DNA of 62,103 bases, filler included, from Rhabdomonas costata (GCA_019059605.1; 26 parts of 26 records of this genome joined end to end with filler, not necessarily neighbours in it); one strand, 5' to 3'. Shown: positions 9,091 to 57,960, numbered from the whole stretch's first letter. Notes: generated by a model from the letters alone, not told the origin. Program-made: numbers and translations.

Positions 9091-9732
9091 GTACGGCTGA
9101 GATCCTTTGTGGAAACCAGGGGAGGAGGAAGAGGGGGGATGCTAACGATACCCTGCACCCTATTTCCTGCAAGTATCCTTGTTTCGTAGACTTTGTTGTT
9201 AACGTGCGGTACATGGGGCATAATCAGCAATCAACTCGCAAATCGCCCGTTGTCCACTCGACTCGCACTGCTGGGCGCTGCGGTCACATGAACGCATTTT
9301 GTACTTACCGGAAGGAAGTTCTTCGTGTCAAAGAAAAAGATACCAGAATCCGTTCCCAGCGAAGGGCGAAGGGTGGAAAGAACAGTAAGAAACGAGGAAT
9401 GGGGGCTTACGTGCTGTGGTTCGCCCGTTTTTCAAAAGTTCTGTGGCAAAAACGGGCGAACCACCACACNNNNNNNNNNNNNNNNNNNNNNNNNNNNNNN
9501 NNNNNNNNNNNNNTTAATTAATTAANNNNNNNNNNNNNNNNNNNNNNNNNNNNNNNNNNNNNNNNNNNNGATTGGAGGAACCCTGAAATCAGGCGGTCAG
9601 CGCCCCCTTTCCCCACACGCAACCCAAAAAACATCATTTAGAAAAAAACAACAACGAAAGAATGGCACGCCAGAAGCCTTCGAGCTGCAACTGCGATCAC
9701 ATGGACGGGCAGGGAGGCGGGAAGGGGCAAAC

Positions 9733-10972
9733 CTTTCCCTTTGCCTGTCATTGGAGGTCAAGTCTGCAAGCAGCGCCTGGTGTGCAACCATGGTGTACGA
9801 CATAGCAGAAAAAGGGACCAAAGGAAGGGGCCTGAGCTCAGCGTGTTGGGCTGACCACGATCCAAACTTACATCTACATTCAGAAAAGCAGCGAAATAAA
9901 TTATTGACGGCAATATCTGAAGCTTTCCTACTACCACCCAGAGGTATGTCGTGAGCTTGTTTCTCATCTTTCTTTCTTTCCTGTCCATGCGAAAACCCTT
10001 AAAACCCTTAATTCTTGTTGCTTAATTTTGGCAAAGTATAATAAAAGCGAGGACAGCGGACCGTTAATATTTCACAAACGGCATATAATTGGAAAAGGGT
10101 GCCATAGCCCAGCAGTTGGAGATCTGTGGGATGACTACTTCAGAAAAGCCACAACTGATTGATGAGCTCAGTTCCCTTCCTGTTGAGAACCCTTGTGCGC
10201 CATCGTAGAGCACCATGGCCACAATGAAATGAAGCCCTGCAATCGCCGGGTTAGCTACTGGGTCTCGTGTGAAGGGACACCAAACCACGAGGAATGCCAG
10301 GGCCCAGAGAGGACCCCCGACACGAATCCGAGGAAGCCGCCGCTGTTGAGCGTTCTGAAAGCGGGTGTCTCCTGGAGAATGAGCGAAGAATCAGAAAAGC
10401 GCGTTCTTCTTTGACTTTGGGACAGTTGTGTCTGCTTGCTCACAGCGATACACGTGTTTCCTTGTCCAGGATGCCTTGGGCTCCGCGCCCAAAGACCCCC
10501 AGGTGCTTTCATTGAAATATGTGCCACTTGTGGCGCGTGTTTCAATGAAAGCACCCGTAAGTGTCGCTGGATTTTCAGTAATGCCAGTTGATTTTTCTTT
10601 TCTAGTGCCCTAAAGGGCGGGAGGGAAATTCTTGAAACAATTGCAATAATGCCAAGTGAGCAGATACCAATTTTGTTTATTCCCAGTCTGTGCTTTGCTC
10701 TTTTCGGTCACCCGAGCGCAAGAGCAAGATTTCGATTGAGGTGCGGGCACACCGATCCATCCAAATACGGGGTCGTTGGTGCAGTTCCACACGCAGTAGA
10801 CGACCTGGCCTACCATGAACCAGAACTGGTTAAGGTGGAAGGTGGTCAAAAACGTCTGCACGTAGAAGGTCACAAAGACGTTGTTCAGCACCGAGGCAGA
10901 AAAGCTTGTCATGGCATAATGCAGAGCCTGACGGTGCAGGCGATCTCCCCAAAGAGTTCGCAGGCGCATCAT
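9733..10972 (-). CDS. MFSD13A: MFS transporter of the TMEM180/MFSD13A family, exons 10972-10753, 10371-10199, 9806-9733 (3' incomplete)
   Basis: VLNNVFVTFYVQTF...WFMVGQVVYCVWNCTNDPVFGWI, GGPLWALAFLVVWCPF, AGLHFIVAMVLYDG and HQALLADL follow the TMEM180 motifs in order ([54 protein letters not shown]). Confidence 0.85.
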
Positions 10973-12114
10973 CCCGGCTCTATCCCGATATCAAAATTTG
11001 TGGGGCCCTTATTACCCACCATATAAACTCAATCCCAGTTGGCAACTTGAGCAAAGCACATCAAAGCCAAGCCACGAAAACAAAACAATGCGGCTAGAAG
11101 AGAAACAAACTGCAACTGCCACATTTTCATGTTCGCACTCAGCGGCAAACAAAGGCATTGAAGGAGGAGGGGAAACACCCACTCAGGTGTATTCAAATGA
11201 AACAAAAAGAAGGTCGAGGTTTGTGTTTTTGTATCATTTGAGAGAAACAGAGGTTTTGTTCAACTGAGCGGGTGAGAATGTGGAAACATTCCTGTTTTTT
11301 TTTTCAAACACAAAAATATTAGTGATCGAACATCTGACCCTCTCTGCGCCAGTTACATAGAACAAATCCCGCATGCAGCGTATTGCACCCTCACTTTTCG
11401 AGCAGCTGAAATCACAACAATACAAATCCGCACAAAAACAAGTTAAGGATTAAGGTCCACTGAGGTCCACGCACCACTGCCATTCTTTACGAAAGACACT
11501 CTCCTCATCATTTTCAGCTGCAGAAAGTCCACAGTGTGCAATCGAATCATTCCAACACGAAAGTTCGAGGGGGGCCCGCCAGCCTGAACGGCGGAGGAAA
11601 ACCCTTGAGCTGCAGAAGGCGAGCCAGCTCGCTTCTCTCCCGGCGCCCCAGGGGAAAAGAACTGCGCGGCCGAAACACAAATGCAGAAGAGAGACAAGAC
11701 GCACCTTCCCACTTTTCAAAAGTGCACAGTGTATCAGGCTTTTTCGCAAGTGAAACGCAGCTGGCAACAACGTCCAACCAACGGAAGCGGTGCGAAATCG
11801 GAGCAAACTCTATTGGATGCGGCCGCGCCCACCAGCCCGAAAAATTAAATCCCCAAACACANNNNNNNNNNNNNNNNNNNNNNNNNNNNNNNNNNNNNNN
11901 NNNNNTTAATTAATTAANNNNNNNNNNNNNNNNNNNNNNNNNNNNNNNNNNNNNNNNNNNNGTGGTCAAAACGAAAAAAGAATCCTCCCGCCCCCCGAAC
12001 CGAATCTGAAATGCGTATGCAAACTTTCGAGTGTGTGTGCGTGTGTGTGTGCGTGCGTGTGTGCGCGCGCGTGCACATCGGATTAGGATAGAGGTGAGGG
12101 TGGGGGAGAGACAC

Positions 12115-15270: not shown

Positions 15271-16646
15271 CCTGCAGGAAGTCCATGACCAGGCAGAGCT
15301 TCTTGTCGGTGTAGAAGGCGTAGTGCAGCTTCACCACAAACGGGTGCTCCATCTTCTGCAGGATGTTGCGCTCCGCGGTTAGCTCCATGTCGCGGTACTT
15401 CGAGAGATGCACCAGGGACTCCTTGCGCAACACCTGTGAGGTAAACGAGGAGCGGGAAGAAATGAGAGAGGGGAACGTAGAAAAATCCCCCCCCCCCAAA
15501 GAGTTGTATATTTTTTTTGGTGGCGGTGGCGGTGGCGGTGGGGGTGTTAAACGTTCAACGTTCAGACCTGCTGAAGGCTTTTTGGCTTTTTCGGATTTGA
15601 GGAATAATCGTTGCTAAGCTTTGGCAGACAAATGGGACTATTTCAAGTCCGCGGCGCGGCCGGGTAAGGAAATTCCATGGGGTGGATGAGGCTCCTTTCA
15701 GCACTTAGCAGTACCAAACGACCGAATTGGTCATTTTTTTGGTCATGTTATTCTTCAGGGCATAGGTATTATACAAACTGTGTCAAGTGCCTGTAAATGC
15801 ATTTATCTAATCAAATGGAGTTAGATTTTTCTGCCCCGAGCCAGATATGATTTACGCGTCAGTATATTTATGATGACAGTTTGCTTTAGCAGTGGTGGGA
15901 AACCTCTAACCCCCCCCCCAAAAAAAAACAACTACAAGAGGCCCAAACAAAATCAAGAAACCATGAAACCATGAAGCTTCCGAGGGAGAAGCGTTTGCGT
16001 GTGCTGTGTGCGTGTGCTGGGCGTATAACGCGCTGACAGTTGCCTGACTGACTGCTGGTGACCGTTGCGTCTCTATGTGTGAGTGATTCCAAACACTCGC
16101 AAAAAAGTTCCTGCAAGCAAAATCGAGGCAGGTATTTGAGCTCTATTTAAAACAGTCATGATCGCTGCAGAAGGAGGAAGTGGGTGTGTGGGGGAAAGGG
16201 ACCTTCATCGCGAAGACCTCCCCGGTATCCTTCTGGCGGACCTTGAGGACCTTCCCGTACGAACCGCGGCCCAGGACCTGCGCATGCCCATTCCCACACC
16301 TTCCACCACAAACGCACCAATGCATTGAGAATACATTTTTCGGCTCAAATGATTCATCGCGAGAAAATCACCACAATGGAAGGGATCACACCGCAATGAT
16401 TTTCTGAAGCGGAAAAAGAAGGGAATGAAGATAAAACGAATGGAAAGAAGAGGCGAAATCCACTCAGGAGGAAAAACAACCCACCTTGATGATGTCAAAG
16501 TCCTCGAAGCCGACCTGGGGCACCTCCTCGCCCGTGAAGATCAGCTCCTTGGCCGGGGCACTGGTGGACTCGCGGATCCTCTTCTGGATCTTCACCCACC
16601 ACGCGTCCTTCTCGATGTCCCCGCACGCGATGAACGTGAACGTGTC
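15271..16646 (-). CDS. PH-domain AGC Ser/Thr kinase (Akt/SGK-like), exons 16646-16485, 16277-16203, 15433-15271
   Basis: PH C-terminal helix (EKDAWWVKIQ), then EDFDIIK|VLGRGSYGKVLKV...FAMK|VLRK...AERNILQKMEHPFVVKLHYAFYTDKKLCLVMDFLQG. All junctions are GT-AG. Confidence 0.93.
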
Positions 16647-23693: not shown

Positions 23694-24152
23694 TCTTCCT
23701 CGACGTCACTGTCCGCTTCCCGGGCGCGCCGCGTCGCATGCTTGCTCTGCCCCTTCCAGCGCAGCTGCAGTTGGCGAGACCGCAGCCCGCTGGCGAGGTA
23801 GACCAAGCGGCGCTCCTCCTTGGAACAACCCCACAANNNNNNNNNNNNNNNNNNNNNNNNNNNNNNNNNNNNNNNNNNNNTTAATTAATTAANNNNNNNN
23901 NNNNNNNNNNNNNNNNNNNNNNNNNNNNNNNNNNNNGTTGGTGGGGGCTTTCTGGAATGTCTCTGCCCAGCGTTCGTCACAAAACTTTAAGTTTCGGGAT
24001 ACACACATGGATAGCAAGAACGGACACGGTGCTTTTTTTTGGGGGGGGGGACTGGTCGTCCACCGCTCCTGCAATCCTTCATTTAACACTGATCCAGACA
24101 GCATCCAGAAAGCACCCACAAAACTCACAGCACACCAAGTGAAGCAGAAGGC

Positions 24153-40574: not shown

Positions 40575-40865
40575 NNNNNNNNNNNNNNNNNNNNNNNNNN
40601 NNNNNNNNNNNNNNNNNNTTAATTAATTAANNNNNNNNNNNNNNNNNNNNNNNNNNNNNNNNNNNNNNNNNNNNGGGGTTGTGGGGAGCCTTTTTTGTAC
40701 CGACTACCGCCTTATTTAAAATTTCACCGGAAAATCCCTGACCTGTGACTTGGATGTTGCCCGAGTTTTTCTTGCTCCCAGTTCCCGTGCAATAAGTGTA
40801 GAAGGGCTGTAGTAGTGTATGCGCTTTCGTGCGGCATCTGGCTGCGGGACGTGAATGGTACGCAG

Positions 40866-41525
40866 GCTTCTTTTCAGAGGTCTGAGACCTCCCAGGTGGA
40901 TTTGCAGCCCCCGATGCCTGCCGTCCCCAGCCCCGACCTGTGTGAGCTGGACACCACCGACCTGCTAAGGAAGATTTATGCCCCAGTGGAGACCCCACTG
41001 GAGCTGCGGTACGTTACCACTAGTCCTGGAGCCGGTCGGCATCGCCAGTACGTTTGGGCTCGCTGTGCCCCATCTCTGGCCGCAAAACCCGTCCCACCTC
41101 GCCAGCATCAGCAGCAGCAGTCAGTGCACGGACTAGGAGCAGGGGCTGAAGCCTCTGGTGAGTCAACTCACGACGACAGCTTCCACCACCATGTCGCCGT
41201 GCTGGCCTTTGCCAGTGACTGGGTACTTCACACAGCTGCCCGGCGGCGGGTCACGTCCCCCGAGGGCGCCGCGAGTGGTTCAAGGCTGCGCCTCGGGATG
41301 ACCGCCTCCCTGGATCACTCGATGTGGTTTTACCGGGAGTTCAGCACCGATGACTGGCTACTCTTCGAGGTGGAGTGCATGGAGGCCCGCGGGGGTCGGG
41401 CCCTTGCCTGGGCTCGGGTCTTCCGGCCCACCGACGGAGCTCTGGTGGCGGCAGCCGCGCAGGAGGGACTGCTTCGGGTGGGGCCCGGAGAGGAGGCTGC
41501 TTCGGCGCCTCAAGCCAAATTGTAA
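40866..41525 (+). CDS. Acyl-CoA thioesterase II (TesB/ACOT8-like), terminal exon
   Basis: ASFQ...PMPAVPSPD...PLELRYV...QYVWAR...HVAVLAFASDW...ASLDHSMWF...DDWLLFEVE....GGRALAWARVF..DGALVAAAAQEGLLR-...TAA after a cgcAG acceptor. Confidence 0.93.
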   Translation, partial: ASFQRSETSQVDLQPPMPAVPSPDLCELDTTDLLRKIYAPVETPLELRYVTTSPGAGRHRQYVWARCAPSLAAKPVPPRQHQQQQSVHGLGAGAEASGESTHDDSFHHHVAVLAFASDWVLHTAARRRVTSPEGAASGSRLRLGMTASLDHSMWFYREFSTDDWLLFEVECMEARGGRALAWARVFRPTDGALVAAAAQEGLLRVGPGEEAASAPQAKL

Positions 41526-50732: not shown

Positions 50733-51488
50733 CTTCAGAGTGTTCACCAGGACATAGCGGGGAAGCACTCTCCGGTCGCGAAGATCCGCGGGAACCAGCT
50801 TCTCGGCGGACTCCACCTGTGAAAAACACAAGACTGAGCCATCGATGCTCCTACAGGGTTTGGGGGCTCTATTCTGTCAGAGAAAAATGGGAACAGTGTG
50901 TGAGGCAATTTGTGAAACATGGTCTCAAGATTTAATCAGGTGTGGCTCAGGCTCACTCCACCTCGGCTCCGTGCGTTGTCGTTGTTGTGTGGATCGCACG
51001 GGCGCACTTTTCCCAATGAGGAAGCAGCAGCCTGCCCGTGAAGGATTTGGCACCCCAAAAAGGCCCCATAATTTTCGCAGTAGTAAAAATAACGCCGTAT
51101 CAAGTGAAGAAAAGGACATGGGTGCGCAGGGTTGCCTTTTTTTCTTGACACCTGCTTCAAATTTTTTGAATCCAATTTTCAAATTTGCGATGTTACGTTT
51201 CCTTTTACGTTTTGACTCTGTAGTAAGTAATTTACTGGGTCCAGTGGCTCAATAGACCTGGGGCTCACTCCTCACTCAGTGCAGGGGAGAGGGTGAGGGG
51301 TGAGGGGAATGCCTTCTCCTTCTTGAGGAGGAGCTTCAGGCCTTGCTTCAGGGCCTTGCCGTACTTCTTAGCAAACTGCTGGCAAAGCCCACGTTCTCGC
51401 TTCAGGCCCTTCCCGAAAAGAAGCTCGTAGGCCAGTACCTGGATCATCTCCGGCCACCAAAGGGGGTTCTTCTCTAGAACACCGACCT
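50733..51488 (-). CDS. NSUN5: NSUN5/Rcm1 rRNA m5C methyltransferase, exons 51488-51313 and 50816-50733
   Basis: QVLAYELLFGKG...KYGKALKQGLKLLLKKEK|VESAEKLVP......LPRYVLVNTLK parallels the NSUN5 motifs KVLVYELLLGKG and LPRFVRVNTLK. Confidence 0.8.
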
Positions 51489-52779
51489 CTGAGGTGGAAG
51501 CGAAAACTTTAAGCTAACATCGCACCACCTTATAATGGAACCGTTCACCGAGCATCGAAACTCCGAATCCCTGCACCTTTCAACACGCGAATCCCCTCGG
51601 AAAAGGTAGTATGTTATGCATTACGTGTATCCACTTATTGCACGAGATCCGCGAATCTTCAGTGTGTGTACGTGTGTGTGTGTGGGGGGGGGGGACGTGG
51701 AATCAAGCGACTCCTAAGGGGTGCGGTGAGATTTTCGGTGCGCCCCCGTCTTGTGAGGAAAACGACGACACGCGAACCAGGCCTTCCACTTTGATGCCGG
51801 GCGTGGAGAATGGAGCCGCCACGGGGGTGCCCGTGGCGGTGGAGAGGAGGTCCTGGCGAAGGGCAATTGCTAGCTGGTCTCCGGGACAATCCTTGAGCAC
51901 TCCGTCCAGCAGCACCAGCGCCTAAGAGAGAAGAAGGCGTCCAGAAAGGAAGCACCGGTTCGACAAAACTTTGCCTTGGAGTAAATACTGGGGAACTGTC
52001 CGGAGCTCAAGCGGGCCGCTGTCATACGTTCGTAAGGTACGATTGCCAGATGCTTTCGAGCACCCCGCCCCCACAAAACTTCTGCAGTGACCTAACTGTT
52101 TCCCGGTCCTGACACACTGCTCCTGTGAGGAACACCAGGGCAAACCAAACAGAAGACCAGACCTTCTCTGACATGCCCTGCAGGGCTAAGGAGAAAGCCT
52201 GCTCGTACTCCGAAGGCTCGCCCTCCTCCTCCTTCAAGGTGTACATCCACTCATCGTCCTGGGACTTGGCCTTGGTGCCGAGAAGCTGGTAAAGTACCGT
52301 CCTGCGGAATCGGGTTAAGACCAATACTCACATAAGAACAGGCAACTCCCTCCCTCCAGCAGGGCATTTACATTCTCTGCCATCCTGTAAATTGCTATGG
52401 TACTAGTGCACTTGGTGGCTTGGTGTCCTGCAACGCTCTCAGTTGAGGTGAGGTGGTACCCGGGGCCACCGAGCGGGTGCACAGGGATGGGGGGGGGTTC
52501 CGTTCCTTGTTTTCCTTCCCCCCACACNNNNNNNNNNNNNNNNNNNNNNNNNNNNNNNNNNNNNNNNNNNNTTAATTAATTAANNNNNNNNNNNNNNNNN
52601 NNNNNNNNNNNNNNNNNNNNNNNNNNNTGTGGTTGGTGGTTGCCAGTGGCACCAGTGGTGTTGCCTCTTCTGTAAGGTACCAGCTACTTCCGCAAGCCAC
52701 ACTGAGCTTCCTCCCGGCCGGATCCTGCAACGCGACTGTGTCTCAGCTGGGTCCTAAAGCCCTTGTGTTTGGGTAGTCA

Positions 52780-54917
52780 GTGGTGTTCACTGGATCTTCG
52801 GGTCCGAATGGGCCTCAGATTCAGGCAGGCATCATGGCGGCATTCTCGGCGCAGAACTCTCGTGGTGGGATCTATGGACACATGTTGCGCTTGGTAAGCC
52901 TAGATGACGGCTACGTCGTCAGTCCCGCAGTTGCCAACACAAAGGCGCTGATTTCTCGGGGAGTGTATGGGCTGATTGGGTATTACGGCACCTCCATTTC
53001 GAACAACGTGGCCCCATTGGCGCTGCAAGCGAAGATCCCATACATTGCGCCATATACCGGGACAACTTCAATCCGAGCGTCTGGGACCTATGTTGTGAAT
53101 CTGCGAGCGGCGTACCCGGACGAGGTTTTTGCGTTGGTTCGGTATGCCACTGCGACCCGAGGGCTCAGTCGGATATCAATCTTTTTCCAGAACGATGCCT
53201 TTGGGATGCAGGGCTACGACGCCTTGGTAAGGGCGCTTGCCGCGATCAACCTGAACATGCTCAGCAATGGCTCCTATGCGACCAACAGCGTTGTTGTGGT
53301 CCCGGGCCTCTCCGCCATAGTGAGCAATGCTCGGCCCTTCACACCAGAAGCGGTGGTTGTTTTTGCGGTGGGACCTCCCGCCACGGCGTTTATTCAGGCG
53401 GCTCAGGCCACACTTCCTGCTTCCACACTGTACCTGTGTCCTTCTGCTGTTGGAGAGGGTTTCATTAGCAACTTTCAGACAAACTACAGCAACATCATCA
53501 TCACTCAGGTCACCCCACTTGCCACCGACACATCTTACAAAGCTACGGTGGACTACCAAGCTGCGATGCTGAAGCAGAATCCAATGTTTCAGCCCTCCCT
53601 GGTGTCCTTTGAGAGCTACATGAATGCCCGTCTCGCAATCAGTGCACTCCTTGAGGTGGCCGAGAACGAGACGCTGGAGTCCACTGCTTTGTTGTTTGCT
53701 GTGTTTGCCACTGGCGAGTTCCTTTTAAGCAGGGTTCACATTGGGCCCTTTTCTTTTTCCTGCAACCAAGGAATGAGGCAGGTCTGGTACTCCTACATTG
53801 ACAATGGGAAGTATGCTGCCCTTCCCAATGAAACTTTCACCTTCACCAGTTCCCCTTGCATGAGCGATGTGGGGGTTTTCAGCACAAGCTTCCTGATCTT
53901 TGGGCAATCTATTCCGCTGACGGGGCCGTCAGGTGGAATCGGGCAGGCTATTCAGAGCGGGGTGCTGGCTGCCTTCACGGAGCAGAACAGCCTCGGAGGA
54001 GTCTCGGGGCATCGCCTGCAACTTTGGTCGCTGGACGACGCAGGCGATGTGAGCCGAACGGTTGCGAACACACTTCAGCTGGTGCAGCGGCAGCCGCTTG
54101 GACTGATCGGCTACGTCGGCTCGGAGGCGACGAATGCGGCGGTGAGCACTGGGTCTGCAGCTGGAGTTCCCATGCTTGGTGCAATCTCTGGGAATGGAAG
54201 CGGGAGCATCCTTCCCAATGAAACTTTCACCTTCACCAGTTCCCCTTGCATGAGCGATGTGGGGGTTTTCAGCACAAGCTTCCTGATCTTTGGGCAATCT
54301 ATTCCGCTGACGGGGCCGTCAGGTGGAATCGGGCAGGCCATTCAGAGCGGGGTGCTGGCTGCCTTCACGGAGCAGAACAGCCTCGGAGGAGTCTCGGGGC
54401 ATCGCCTGCAACTTTGGTCGCTGGACGACGCAGGCGATGTGAGCCGAACGGTTGCGAACACACTTCAGCTGGTGCAGCGGCAGCCGCTTGGACTGATCGG
54501 CTACGTCGGCTCGGAGGCGACGAATGCGGCGGTGAGCACTGGGTCTGCAGCTGGAGTTCCCATGCTTGGTGCAATCTCTGGGAATGGAAGCGGGAGCATC
54601 CTTTCCAACCCTTACGTGGTCAACCTTCGAGCCCGATATTCGGATGAGATGAATGCCTTGCTGAACTACGCGACATCGACCCTGGGGTTGACCAGGATCA
54701 GTGTCTTCTACAGTGGAGATGTCTTTGGTTTCGAGGGGATAGCCTTGGCCAGCGCTGCCCTGAATGCCATCAATTTGCGCCCTCTGAGCAATGGGAGCTG
54801 CAGCGGCAGCTGTGTTGAGGTTGTTGGTGGACTGTCTGCGATAGCGAACAACGCCCGGGCGGTGCTCCCCCAAGCGGTGGTTGTGTGGGCTTCCTCTGCA
54901 GAGGAAGCCCACCTCAA
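52780..54917 (+). CDS. Intronless receptor ectodomain with tandem type-I periplasmic-binding-protein (Leu-binding-like) domains, resembling euglenozoan receptor adenylate cyclases; possibly pseudogenised
   Basis: 713 open codons with repeated FGQS..LTGP...G..IQ.G+.AAF..QN..GG+.GH.L.L.SLDD.....V.NT..L....GLIGY.G...VVNLRA.Y.DE units, many N-x-S/T sequons and a signal-like upstream segment. In-frame TAG at 52774. Confidence 0.8.
53821..54600 (+). repeat. Near-perfect in-frame 390-bp tandem duplication
   Basis: 53821-54210 and 54211-54600 are identical except for one synonymous change that I could see (GCT/GCC). Confidence 0.95.
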
Positions 54918-57072: not shown

Positions 57073-57960
57073 ACCGCCCGGGGGTGCAGGTAGAGGTGGA
57101 CCTAAAAAGATGTATCCTCCCGGCGCCAGACATAAATACCAAAACGAAAATGCAAGACACCTAAAATCAAGAAAAGGGGCGCCGGGATGCATGTGGAGAT
57201 GGGGTAAGGGTGCACCCCCGGGTAAGGAAATCTAGGTCCCCCTAAAGGTCGATGGAGGGGTGGACGTGAGGTGGGATGGGGGGTGCAGGTCACCTGGGCT
57301 AAAGGACCTCCATACCCCCCTACCNNNNNNNNNNNNNNNNNNNNNNNNNNNNNNNNNNNNNNNNNNNNTTAATTAATTAANNNNNNNNNNNNNNNNNNNN
57401 NNNNNNNNNNNNNNNNNNNNNNNNGTGTTGTTTGATTGTACACAAATTCTCCGTGGAGGTCAATCCCGTTGGAGCTGATGAAGAGTTTTTTGTTAGTTAC
57501 GCTAAATTGGACGGACGCACCTTTGTTTCCTCCTCCTATCGGAGGATATTAAAGGTCTGATGTGGTTAAGAAGGTGGAGCTGAGCCCACCGCCAAGGTGG
57601 CCGACAATGTTTTCGTACGTTGTTGGTAAAGAAGTTGAGAGGGTGGTGTAATGTGGTGGTGTAAATGAAGCTTGGAGAAGTTTGGTCGATTGAGCCGTAA
57701 AGATCGCAAGCTTCAATACATCAATCGCCAATTCCAGAGGGCTCCATAACTGGACCCAGTTCACAATAAAAAGAAAAGAAAAAGAAAAAAACAAAAAAAA
57801 AGAGAGAGAAAACAAAAAAATCAAAAGACTAAAACAAAGCTGTGAACCAACTCTTTAAGCACTCTTTAAGCAGATCTGGGAACTGTTATCCTCCCAGATA
57901 AGAGAGATTAGAGAGTGGAGAGTGGGTACGATGCAGAGAAAGAGAGGGAGAGGGGAATAC

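Follow-up and report, generated by a model that had tools for sequence, protein, structure and literature searches.

The window analysed here, 62,103 nt in total, consists of 26 contigs of Rhabdomonas costata, about 2.29 kb each, with the same 100-nt spacer (44 N, TTAATTAATTAA, 44 N) between neighbours. It is a length-sorted set of contigs from a very fragmented assembly, and features are unreadable across the spacers; the draft genome has an N50 of 1194 bp and 51.6% GC, and was obtained from whole-genome-amplified DNA (Soukal et al. 2021, PMC8219788), with which the make-up of the window agrees. The fifth contig of the 26 (9570-11861) carries three exons of a transporter gene, the two introns between them and the 5′ part of a third intron (Table 1). 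The gene model was obtained by tblastn of three proteins against the window, with the borders read from the sequence. Intron 3 is simply cut short where the contig stops at 9570, because the window is made of short contigs joined by spacers. An earlier annotation of this DNA without database searches (hereafter the sequence-only reading) had described intron 1 as GT-AG and intron 3 as having a GT donor, and both were read in this form at their borders.

The translation of exon 2 matched three proteins: RCo046500 and RCo046501, both at 100% identity, and a 494-aa relative (P0003) at 63%. The RCo identifiers denote R. costata proteins predicted with TransDecoder on a Trinity transcriptome, and are not genome-derived (PMC8219788). 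The match of the exons to these transcriptome-derived proteins at 100% identity places the gene in a euglenid host. P0003, a full-length euglenozoan relative, generated 103 protein matches, which include many vertebrate proteins named transmembrane protein 180 or MF13A; the vertebrate 'transmembrane protein 180' matches had E values of about 1e-50 to 1e-27 across about 95% of P0003. Pfam MFS_2 (PF13347) was hit by RCo046500 (P0001, E = 5.3e-10) and by P0003 (E = 5e-16). Given the names of these relatives and the MFS_2 match, 'MFSD13A/TMEM180-like', which is also the identity assigned in the sequence-only reading, is a fair name for the gene, resting on similarity and not on reciprocal-best orthology.

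Table 1. Coordinates of gene parts, putative terminal stem arms and alternative borders on contig 9570-11861 (window positions; ^ marks a junction)
Feature	Coordinates	Strand	Description
Exon 1	10753..10972	-	Start Met to ...GWI-G; tblastn with RCo046500 (P0001), 100% identity, residues 1-74
Intron 1	10372..10752	-	381 nt; conventional GT-AG, GTGTG...pyrimidine-rich...CCAG; 3′ 25 nt 76% pyrimidine
Exon 2	10199..10371	-	Ends ...LYDG (GATGGC), nucleotides ...CTCTACGATGGC at 10199
Intron 2, very probably nonconventional	9807..10198	-	392 nt; GC...CT borders; mRNA-equivalent: 10197-9806, 10196-9805
Exon 3	9733..9806	-	Starts AMSYTMVAHQALLADLTSNDRQRE / GCTATGTCGTAC at 9806
Intron 3, 5′ part	9570..9732	-	GTTTG donor at 9732; leaves contig at 9570
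5′ arm of terminal inverted repeat	10163..10194	-	AAGGG, 8-nt loop, AGGAAGGG, AA, CTGAGCTCA
3′ arm of terminal inverted repeat	9812..9840	-	TGAGCTCAG, GC, CCCTTCCT, 5-nt loop, CCCTT
In-frame GT-AG alternative, unused	9832..10190	-	Inside terminal stem; would add AQGPLPLVPFS, 33 nt = 11 codons
Register 0	10198/9807	-	GC..CT; C^G and T^G; spacers around AAGGG/CCCTT 4 nt (5′) and 5 nt (3′)
Register 1	10197/9806	-	CA..TG; G^C at both junctions, downstream exon starts with C; spacers 3 and 6 nt
Register 2	10196/9805	-	AC..GC; C^A and C^T; spacers 2 and 7 nt

When the three exons were joined without 10198-9807, their translation was identical to the first 155 residues of RCo046500, in which LYDG is joined to AMSYT as predicted for this junction, while retention of intron 2 led to a stop at codon 175. 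The sequence-only reading had described this removal as gap-free against TMEM180; when both models were aligned with 25 homologues picked throughout the hit list, from euglenozoans to vertebrates, all 25 were gap-free across the junction. It had also pointed to a possible canonical route, from GT at about 10190 to AG at about 9831, and a GT at 10190 and an AG ending at 9832 are indeed present and in frame. The 11-residue insert that this route would add is absent from all 25 homologues and from both R. costata proteins containing exon 2. As the sole in-frame GT-AG pair, it predicts residues missing from RCo046500, so that conventional borders do not explain the product; the 25 nt before the internal AG (9833-9832) are 48% pyrimidine, versus 76% before the AG of intron 1. 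Together, the match to RCo046500 and the lack of the insert in homologues point to a transcript without exactly 10198-9807 or an equivalent segment.

RCo046501 (P0002) contains exons 1-2 and then passes from LYDG straight to a segment located about 95 residues further on in relatives, and the downstream DNA of that segment lies outside the window. This protein may represent either an exon-skipped product with the same 5′ border or a transcript-assembly artefact. Because it joins the same exon end elsewhere, either processing is non-uniform at this locus or the transcript assembly is imperfect. Alternative transcripts have been described for 3 of 7 curated nonconventional (NC) introns of R. costata (PMC8219788).

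On the minus strand, intron 2 starts with GCACAAGGG after ...GATGGC and finishes with CCCTTTTTCT before GCTATG (longer ends: 5′, GCACAAGGGTTCTCAACAGGAAGGGAACTGAGCTCA; 3′, TGAGCTCAGGCCCCTTCCTTTGGTCCCTTTTTCT); all coordinates and strings given for it in the sequence-only reading were correct on re-reading. As GC is repeated at the 5′ start of the intron and the start of the 3′ exon, three border pairs give one mRNA (registers 0 to 2 in Table 1), and a fourth border, one nt upstream on both sides (GGT for GGC), would encode identical residues. A GT/GC-AG border pair was found in none of the three registers. Consistent with the earlier claim that the intron lacks an AG acceptor and has pyrimidine^purine at both junctions, no AG is located at or next to the 3′ border, and register 0 has C^G and T^G. 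A pyrimidine at the 3′ ends of exon and intron and a purine at the 5′ ends of intron and downstream exon are described as the rule for NC introns (PMC3935182, PMC4770533); register 0 satisfies all four purine/pyrimidine rules at both junctions, a trait that is frequent and not universal.

The ends of intron 2 had been reported to be complementary over about 30 nt, and both arms were confirmed at the positions given in Table 1. A repeat search detected an inner inverted repeat of 19 nt with 89% complementarity (9822-9840 versus 10163-10181), and an outer 5-nt pair, AAGGG/CCCTT, is formed by 10194-10190 with 9816-9812. The interrupted stem comprises 5 + 8 + 9 complementary bases, to which the fold adds four pairs between blocks one and two. 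Pairing of the first 45 nt of intron 2 with its last 45 nt gave a duplex of -41.4 kcal/mol, a value attained by none of 2000 shuffles of the 3′ arm (mean -19.9, sd 3.4) and by 8 of 5000 random 392-nt spans of the window (mean -18.3, sd 6.5); the terminal duplex of GT-AG intron 1 in the same gene reached -9.5 kcal/mol. Folding, which the sequence-only reading had suggested as a check, showed that only the termini are unusual. The fold of the whole intron is unremarkable (z = -1.06), and exon-exon flank pairing over the junction (-7.5 kcal/mol) is within chance, being equalled by 411 of 5000 random spans; the signal is therefore confined to the intron termini. A continuous helix running through the cut sites was considered and dropped, as the same exon-flank pairing does not exceed chance. 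Intron 2 has a GC content of 43.6%, versus 55.7% in the exons. An 11-nt perfect direct repeat, GCTTTTCTGAA (minus strand), was also observed inside intron 2 at 9879-9889 and 10139-10149, about 50 nt from the 5′ end and about 70-80 nt from the 3′ end, and may be due to chance.

NC introns are described as having no polypyrimidine tract (PMC11282704). Intron 2 departs from this descriptive trait, its last 25 nt being 88% pyrimidine with no AG following, because its 3′ end is complementary to a 5′ arm rich in purines. In the predicted fold, the pairing of AAGGG ends with G10190, T10189 lies in the adjoining internal loop, and the AG at 9833-9832 is within the paired palindromic block CTGAGCTCAG. 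The pairing of G10190 and of the AG, the loop position of T10189 and the weak pyrimidine content before the AG may explain why the canonical sites appear unused in this model.

Present in the DNA and absent, at protein level, from the mature transcript-derived product at a defined junction, and having noncanonical borders and a strong terminal stem, 10198-9807 (minus strand) is very probably an NC intron of the R. costata TMEM180/MFSD13A-like MFS transporter gene, situated between two conventional GT-AG-type introns. This agrees with the sequence-only reading, which had assigned it to the euglenid-type NC introns with paired termini; RCo046500 carries LYDG^AMSYT, and the host exons are euglenid at 100% identity.

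In E. gracilis, knock-in experiments indicated that terminal pairing is required for NC splicing (PMC12501133), and conventional introns are removed before NC introns in Euglena (PMC6221363). A circular NC intron product has been cited (PMC11282704, PMC12621601), and an RNase III-like or tRNA-splicing-like cut-and-ligate pathway has been proposed (PMC12621601); no publication naming the NC-splicing machinery was found in our literature search. By analogy with Euglena, conventional introns 1 and 3 would be removed first by the spliceosome, after which the machinery would recognise the terminal helix of intron 2 independently of U1. With the two junctions brought together by the terminal stem, cleavage would occur at C^G and T^G, a few nt outside the helix, and the exons would be joined with the intron leaving in circular form. 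Neither the GT nor the AG in the interior, both of which lie within the stem region, would be used.

For the divergent introns of Fritillaria, spliceosomal removal, with a terminal stem aiding juxtaposition of the sites, has been proposed. Removal of intron 2 in a similar way, by a U2-type spliceosome acting at non-consensus sites that the stem only juxtaposes, is very improbable. It would be in keeping with the 3′ pyrimidine run (88% over 25 nt) and with the GC that begins register 0, an allowed 5′ dinucleotide, and neither PMC12501133 nor PMC12621601 attributes NC splicing to an established machinery. An AG is, however, neither at nor beside the 3′ border, and the 5′ end GCACAA is unlike the GTGTG and GTTTG donors of introns 1 and 3. 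Euglena NC introns, moreover, are described as being without U1 complementarity and as leaving after the conventional ones, as circles and not lariats (PMC11282704, PMC12621601, PMC6221363).

A second allele or paralogue, free of the interruption, might instead be the source of the mRNA, the contig copy holding a transposon-like insertion that is never spliced and has a 2-bp GC target duplication. The terminal inverted repeats and the GC direct repeat at the borders are compatible with this explanation, since such a direct repeat makes the 'spliced' sequence equal to the empty insertion site, and the assembly is incomplete, with 43.5% of transcriptome reads mapped (PMC8219788). Nevertheless, the flanking exons are 100% identical to RCo046500 across 155 residues, and neither the exons nor the element was found a second time within the window. 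Border direct repeats are also normal for true NC introns, 84.4% of E. agilis introns being slidable, and such elements were spliced in the Euglena knock-ins (PMC12501133), which makes an unspliced insertion very improbable. That the functional mRNA uses GT 10190/AG 9832, the RCo046500 junction being a minor form or an RT or assembly artefact, is hardly credible, as the pair exists and keeps the frame but its insert would interrupt a conserved gap-free segment and occurs in neither the two R. costata exon-2 proteins nor the 25 homologues, and the sites themselves have 48% pyrimidine before the AG, with G10190 and the AG paired in the predicted stem and T10189 in its internal loop.

Taking 10198-9807 as an NC intron, we compared it with the Euglena NC introns (Milanowski 2014/2016 model; Nomura 2025 code). 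The two are alike in their euglenid host, in the lack of GT/C-AG borders, in a terminal inverted repeat of the junction-juxtaposing kind, in a border rendered slidable by a short direct repeat, and in a gene that also holds conventional introns; in register 0, they further share pyrimidine^purine at both junctions and CA at +4,+5. Published descriptions of NC introns have CTG at -8 to -6 as the pairing partner of CA or CAG at +4 to +6. Genetically, the Euglena code was defined as 5′-N3CDG-/-CH′GN5-6^R, with a strict 5′ spacer and a 3′ spacer of 5 or 6 nt (Nomura 2025, PMC12501133). Unlike these, intron 2 is without a CAG/CTG core: a regular-expression search for N3-CDG/CH′G-N5-6^R found no match in any of the three registers, in which +4 to +6 read CAA, AAG or AGG, and CH′G was absent at -8 to -6 and at -9 to -7 in every register. 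The stem of intron 2 (5 + 8 + 9 complementary bases) is also far longer than the 3-bp core, and its 3′ end is pyrimidine-rich.

The spacing differs between registers. In register 0, the partner of CA at +4,+5 is TT (-7,-6) and not TG, and the first helix, AAGGG/CCCTT, is displaced inwards by one position on the 5′ side and opens at +5/-6 (spacers 4 and 5). When slid by one (register 1), the helix is at +4/-7 and the 3/6 spacing is regained, but an A-U pair takes the place of the first C-G pair, and the purine rule is broken by the C at the exon start. Register 0 is favoured by the purine rules and disfavoured by the spacer rule. The earlier statement that the pairing register is shifted by one (+5 with -6) from that of Euglena thus stands for register 0 alone. 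Sliding the border by one gives the 3- and 6-nt spacers of the Euglena code; the 'shift' depends on the border chosen, given the freedom of 0, 1 or 2 nt that the direct repeat of GC allows.

Among the NC introns of E. agilis, 61.2% carry the code (PMC12501133); since about 39% of them are also off-code, an off-code example is not remarkable in itself. In E. gracilis, single motif changes or the addition of one nt to the 5′ spacer abolished splicing (PMC12501133). In intron 2, the junction-nearest helix opens with A-U and not C-G, together with a 5′ spacer of 4 nt or else a pyrimidine as the first base of the downstream exon; each of these lies beyond what the E. gracilis knock-in assay accepted. 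The code was defined in phototrophic euglenids, to which R. costata, as a primary osmotroph, does not belong, and it is conceivable, though doubtful, that it splices NC introns by a code other than N3-CDG/CH′G-N5-6^R. If this were true and typical of the lineage, the machinery would read helix geometry and not the CAG/CTG sequence, and a comparison of R. costata with phototrophic euglenids would narrow what the enzyme measures.

A MITE origin has long been proposed for NC introns (PMC3935182, PMC12501133, PMC11282704), and the sequence-only reading had suggested a MITE-like element turned intron. Intron 2 fits this hypothesis in being short, non-coding and lower in GC, and in having inverted repeats at its ends and a 2-nt repeat at its borders. 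The direct repeat flanking it is GC only, however, and at 2 nt is too short to tell from chance. BLAST of intron 2 against the 62-kb window returned only itself, its own inverted arms and chance matches of 10-15 nt, and a search of the window for the 19-nt repeat core, in which up to 3 mismatches were allowed, gave 2 matches, which were its own arms (0.12 expected). The copy searches, covering 62 kb of the approximately 107-Mb assembly and hence a weak test for a MITE family, gave no support to the proposed origin, with which the inverted repeats, border repeat and low GC agree. Introners, i.e. MITE-derived introns of Micromonas, dinoflagellates and others, are similarly short, non-coding and lower in GC, with terminal inverted repeats and possible target-site duplication; unlike intron 2, which is noncanonical and has no second copy in the 62 kb, they are multi-copy and spliceosomal, with GT/GC-AG sites partly made by the insertion. 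An Rfam search of the contig (E <= 1) gave six matches, none of them in intron 2; five were sub-threshold miRNA-like matches in a hairpin of intron 1 (10502-10555), which is 54 nt long and near-perfect, with 26-nt arms and a 2-nt loop.

NC introns belong to the textbook peculiarities of euglenids. In R. costata, 105 contigs with read-supported noncanonical borders and 7 curated NC introns were reported in 2021 (PMC8219788). As this class of intron has already been reported in the species, intron 2 is a good further example and not a new phenomenon. It shares with the seven curated introns the species and the transcript-versus-contig type of evidence, and with some of them alternative transcripts (here RCo046501); the curated example named in the main text is a different one, located on contig NODE_718 with transcript TR27401 and encoding a hypothetical protein (PMC8219788). 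Noncanonical introns of hemistasiid diplonemids are also euglenozoan, without GT-AG and with strong end pairing, but belong to another class of Euglenozoa, and their ends are described as G/C-rich (PMC12621601).

The class, its presence in R. costata, the hypothesis of transposon origin and the puzzle of the mechanism are all in print, and intron 2 opens no new question. Unless already listed in Supplementary Tables S4-S6 of PMC8219788, it adds one well-supported NC intron, in a conserved transporter gene, to a very small set from a primarily heterotrophic euglenid. It is also a natural off-code variant, with strong pairing, no CAG/CTG core and ambiguous spacing, and variants of this kind would be useful in the Euglena knock-in assay for asking whether the motif is needed or the helix alone suffices. 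For annotation, the in-frame GT-AG hidden in the stem would lead a conventional gene predictor to add 11 residues in a conserved segment.

A script-based scan of the whole window for inverted repeats gave no second NC candidate with coding flanks that could be verified without transcripts, and no second NC intron was identified by Pfam searches of ten long ORFs of other contigs and inspection of the borders of one three-exon gene. The latter (51268-52304, minus strand) has two internal introns that look conventional by eye (GT...pyrimidine-rich...AG), and its tested exon generated no Pfam match. Inverted-repeat or palindrome pairs at 9416-9464, 23941-24119 and 57077-57222 are located within a few bases, or within about 100 bases, of contig ends and may be artefacts of whole-genome amplification. 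Perfect inverted repeats of 13-14 nt, with arms 1.2-1.7 kb apart, were observed in four contigs (17613/18928, 32027/33179, 50794/52277 and 38598/40292) and exceed chance by a rough reckoning; as one arm (52277-52290) lies in an exon, these repeats are not simply intron termini. An uninterrupted ORF of 713 aa (52777-54915, plus strand) spans nearly a whole contig and matched Peripla_BP_6 (E = 5e-67) and ANF_receptor, and represents a receptor-type gene without introns or else a contaminant. In addition, an ORF at 40749-41522 (plus strand) encodes an acyl-CoA thioesterase C-terminal domain, and a short exon at 16146-16367 (minus strand) encodes the start of a protein-kinase domain.
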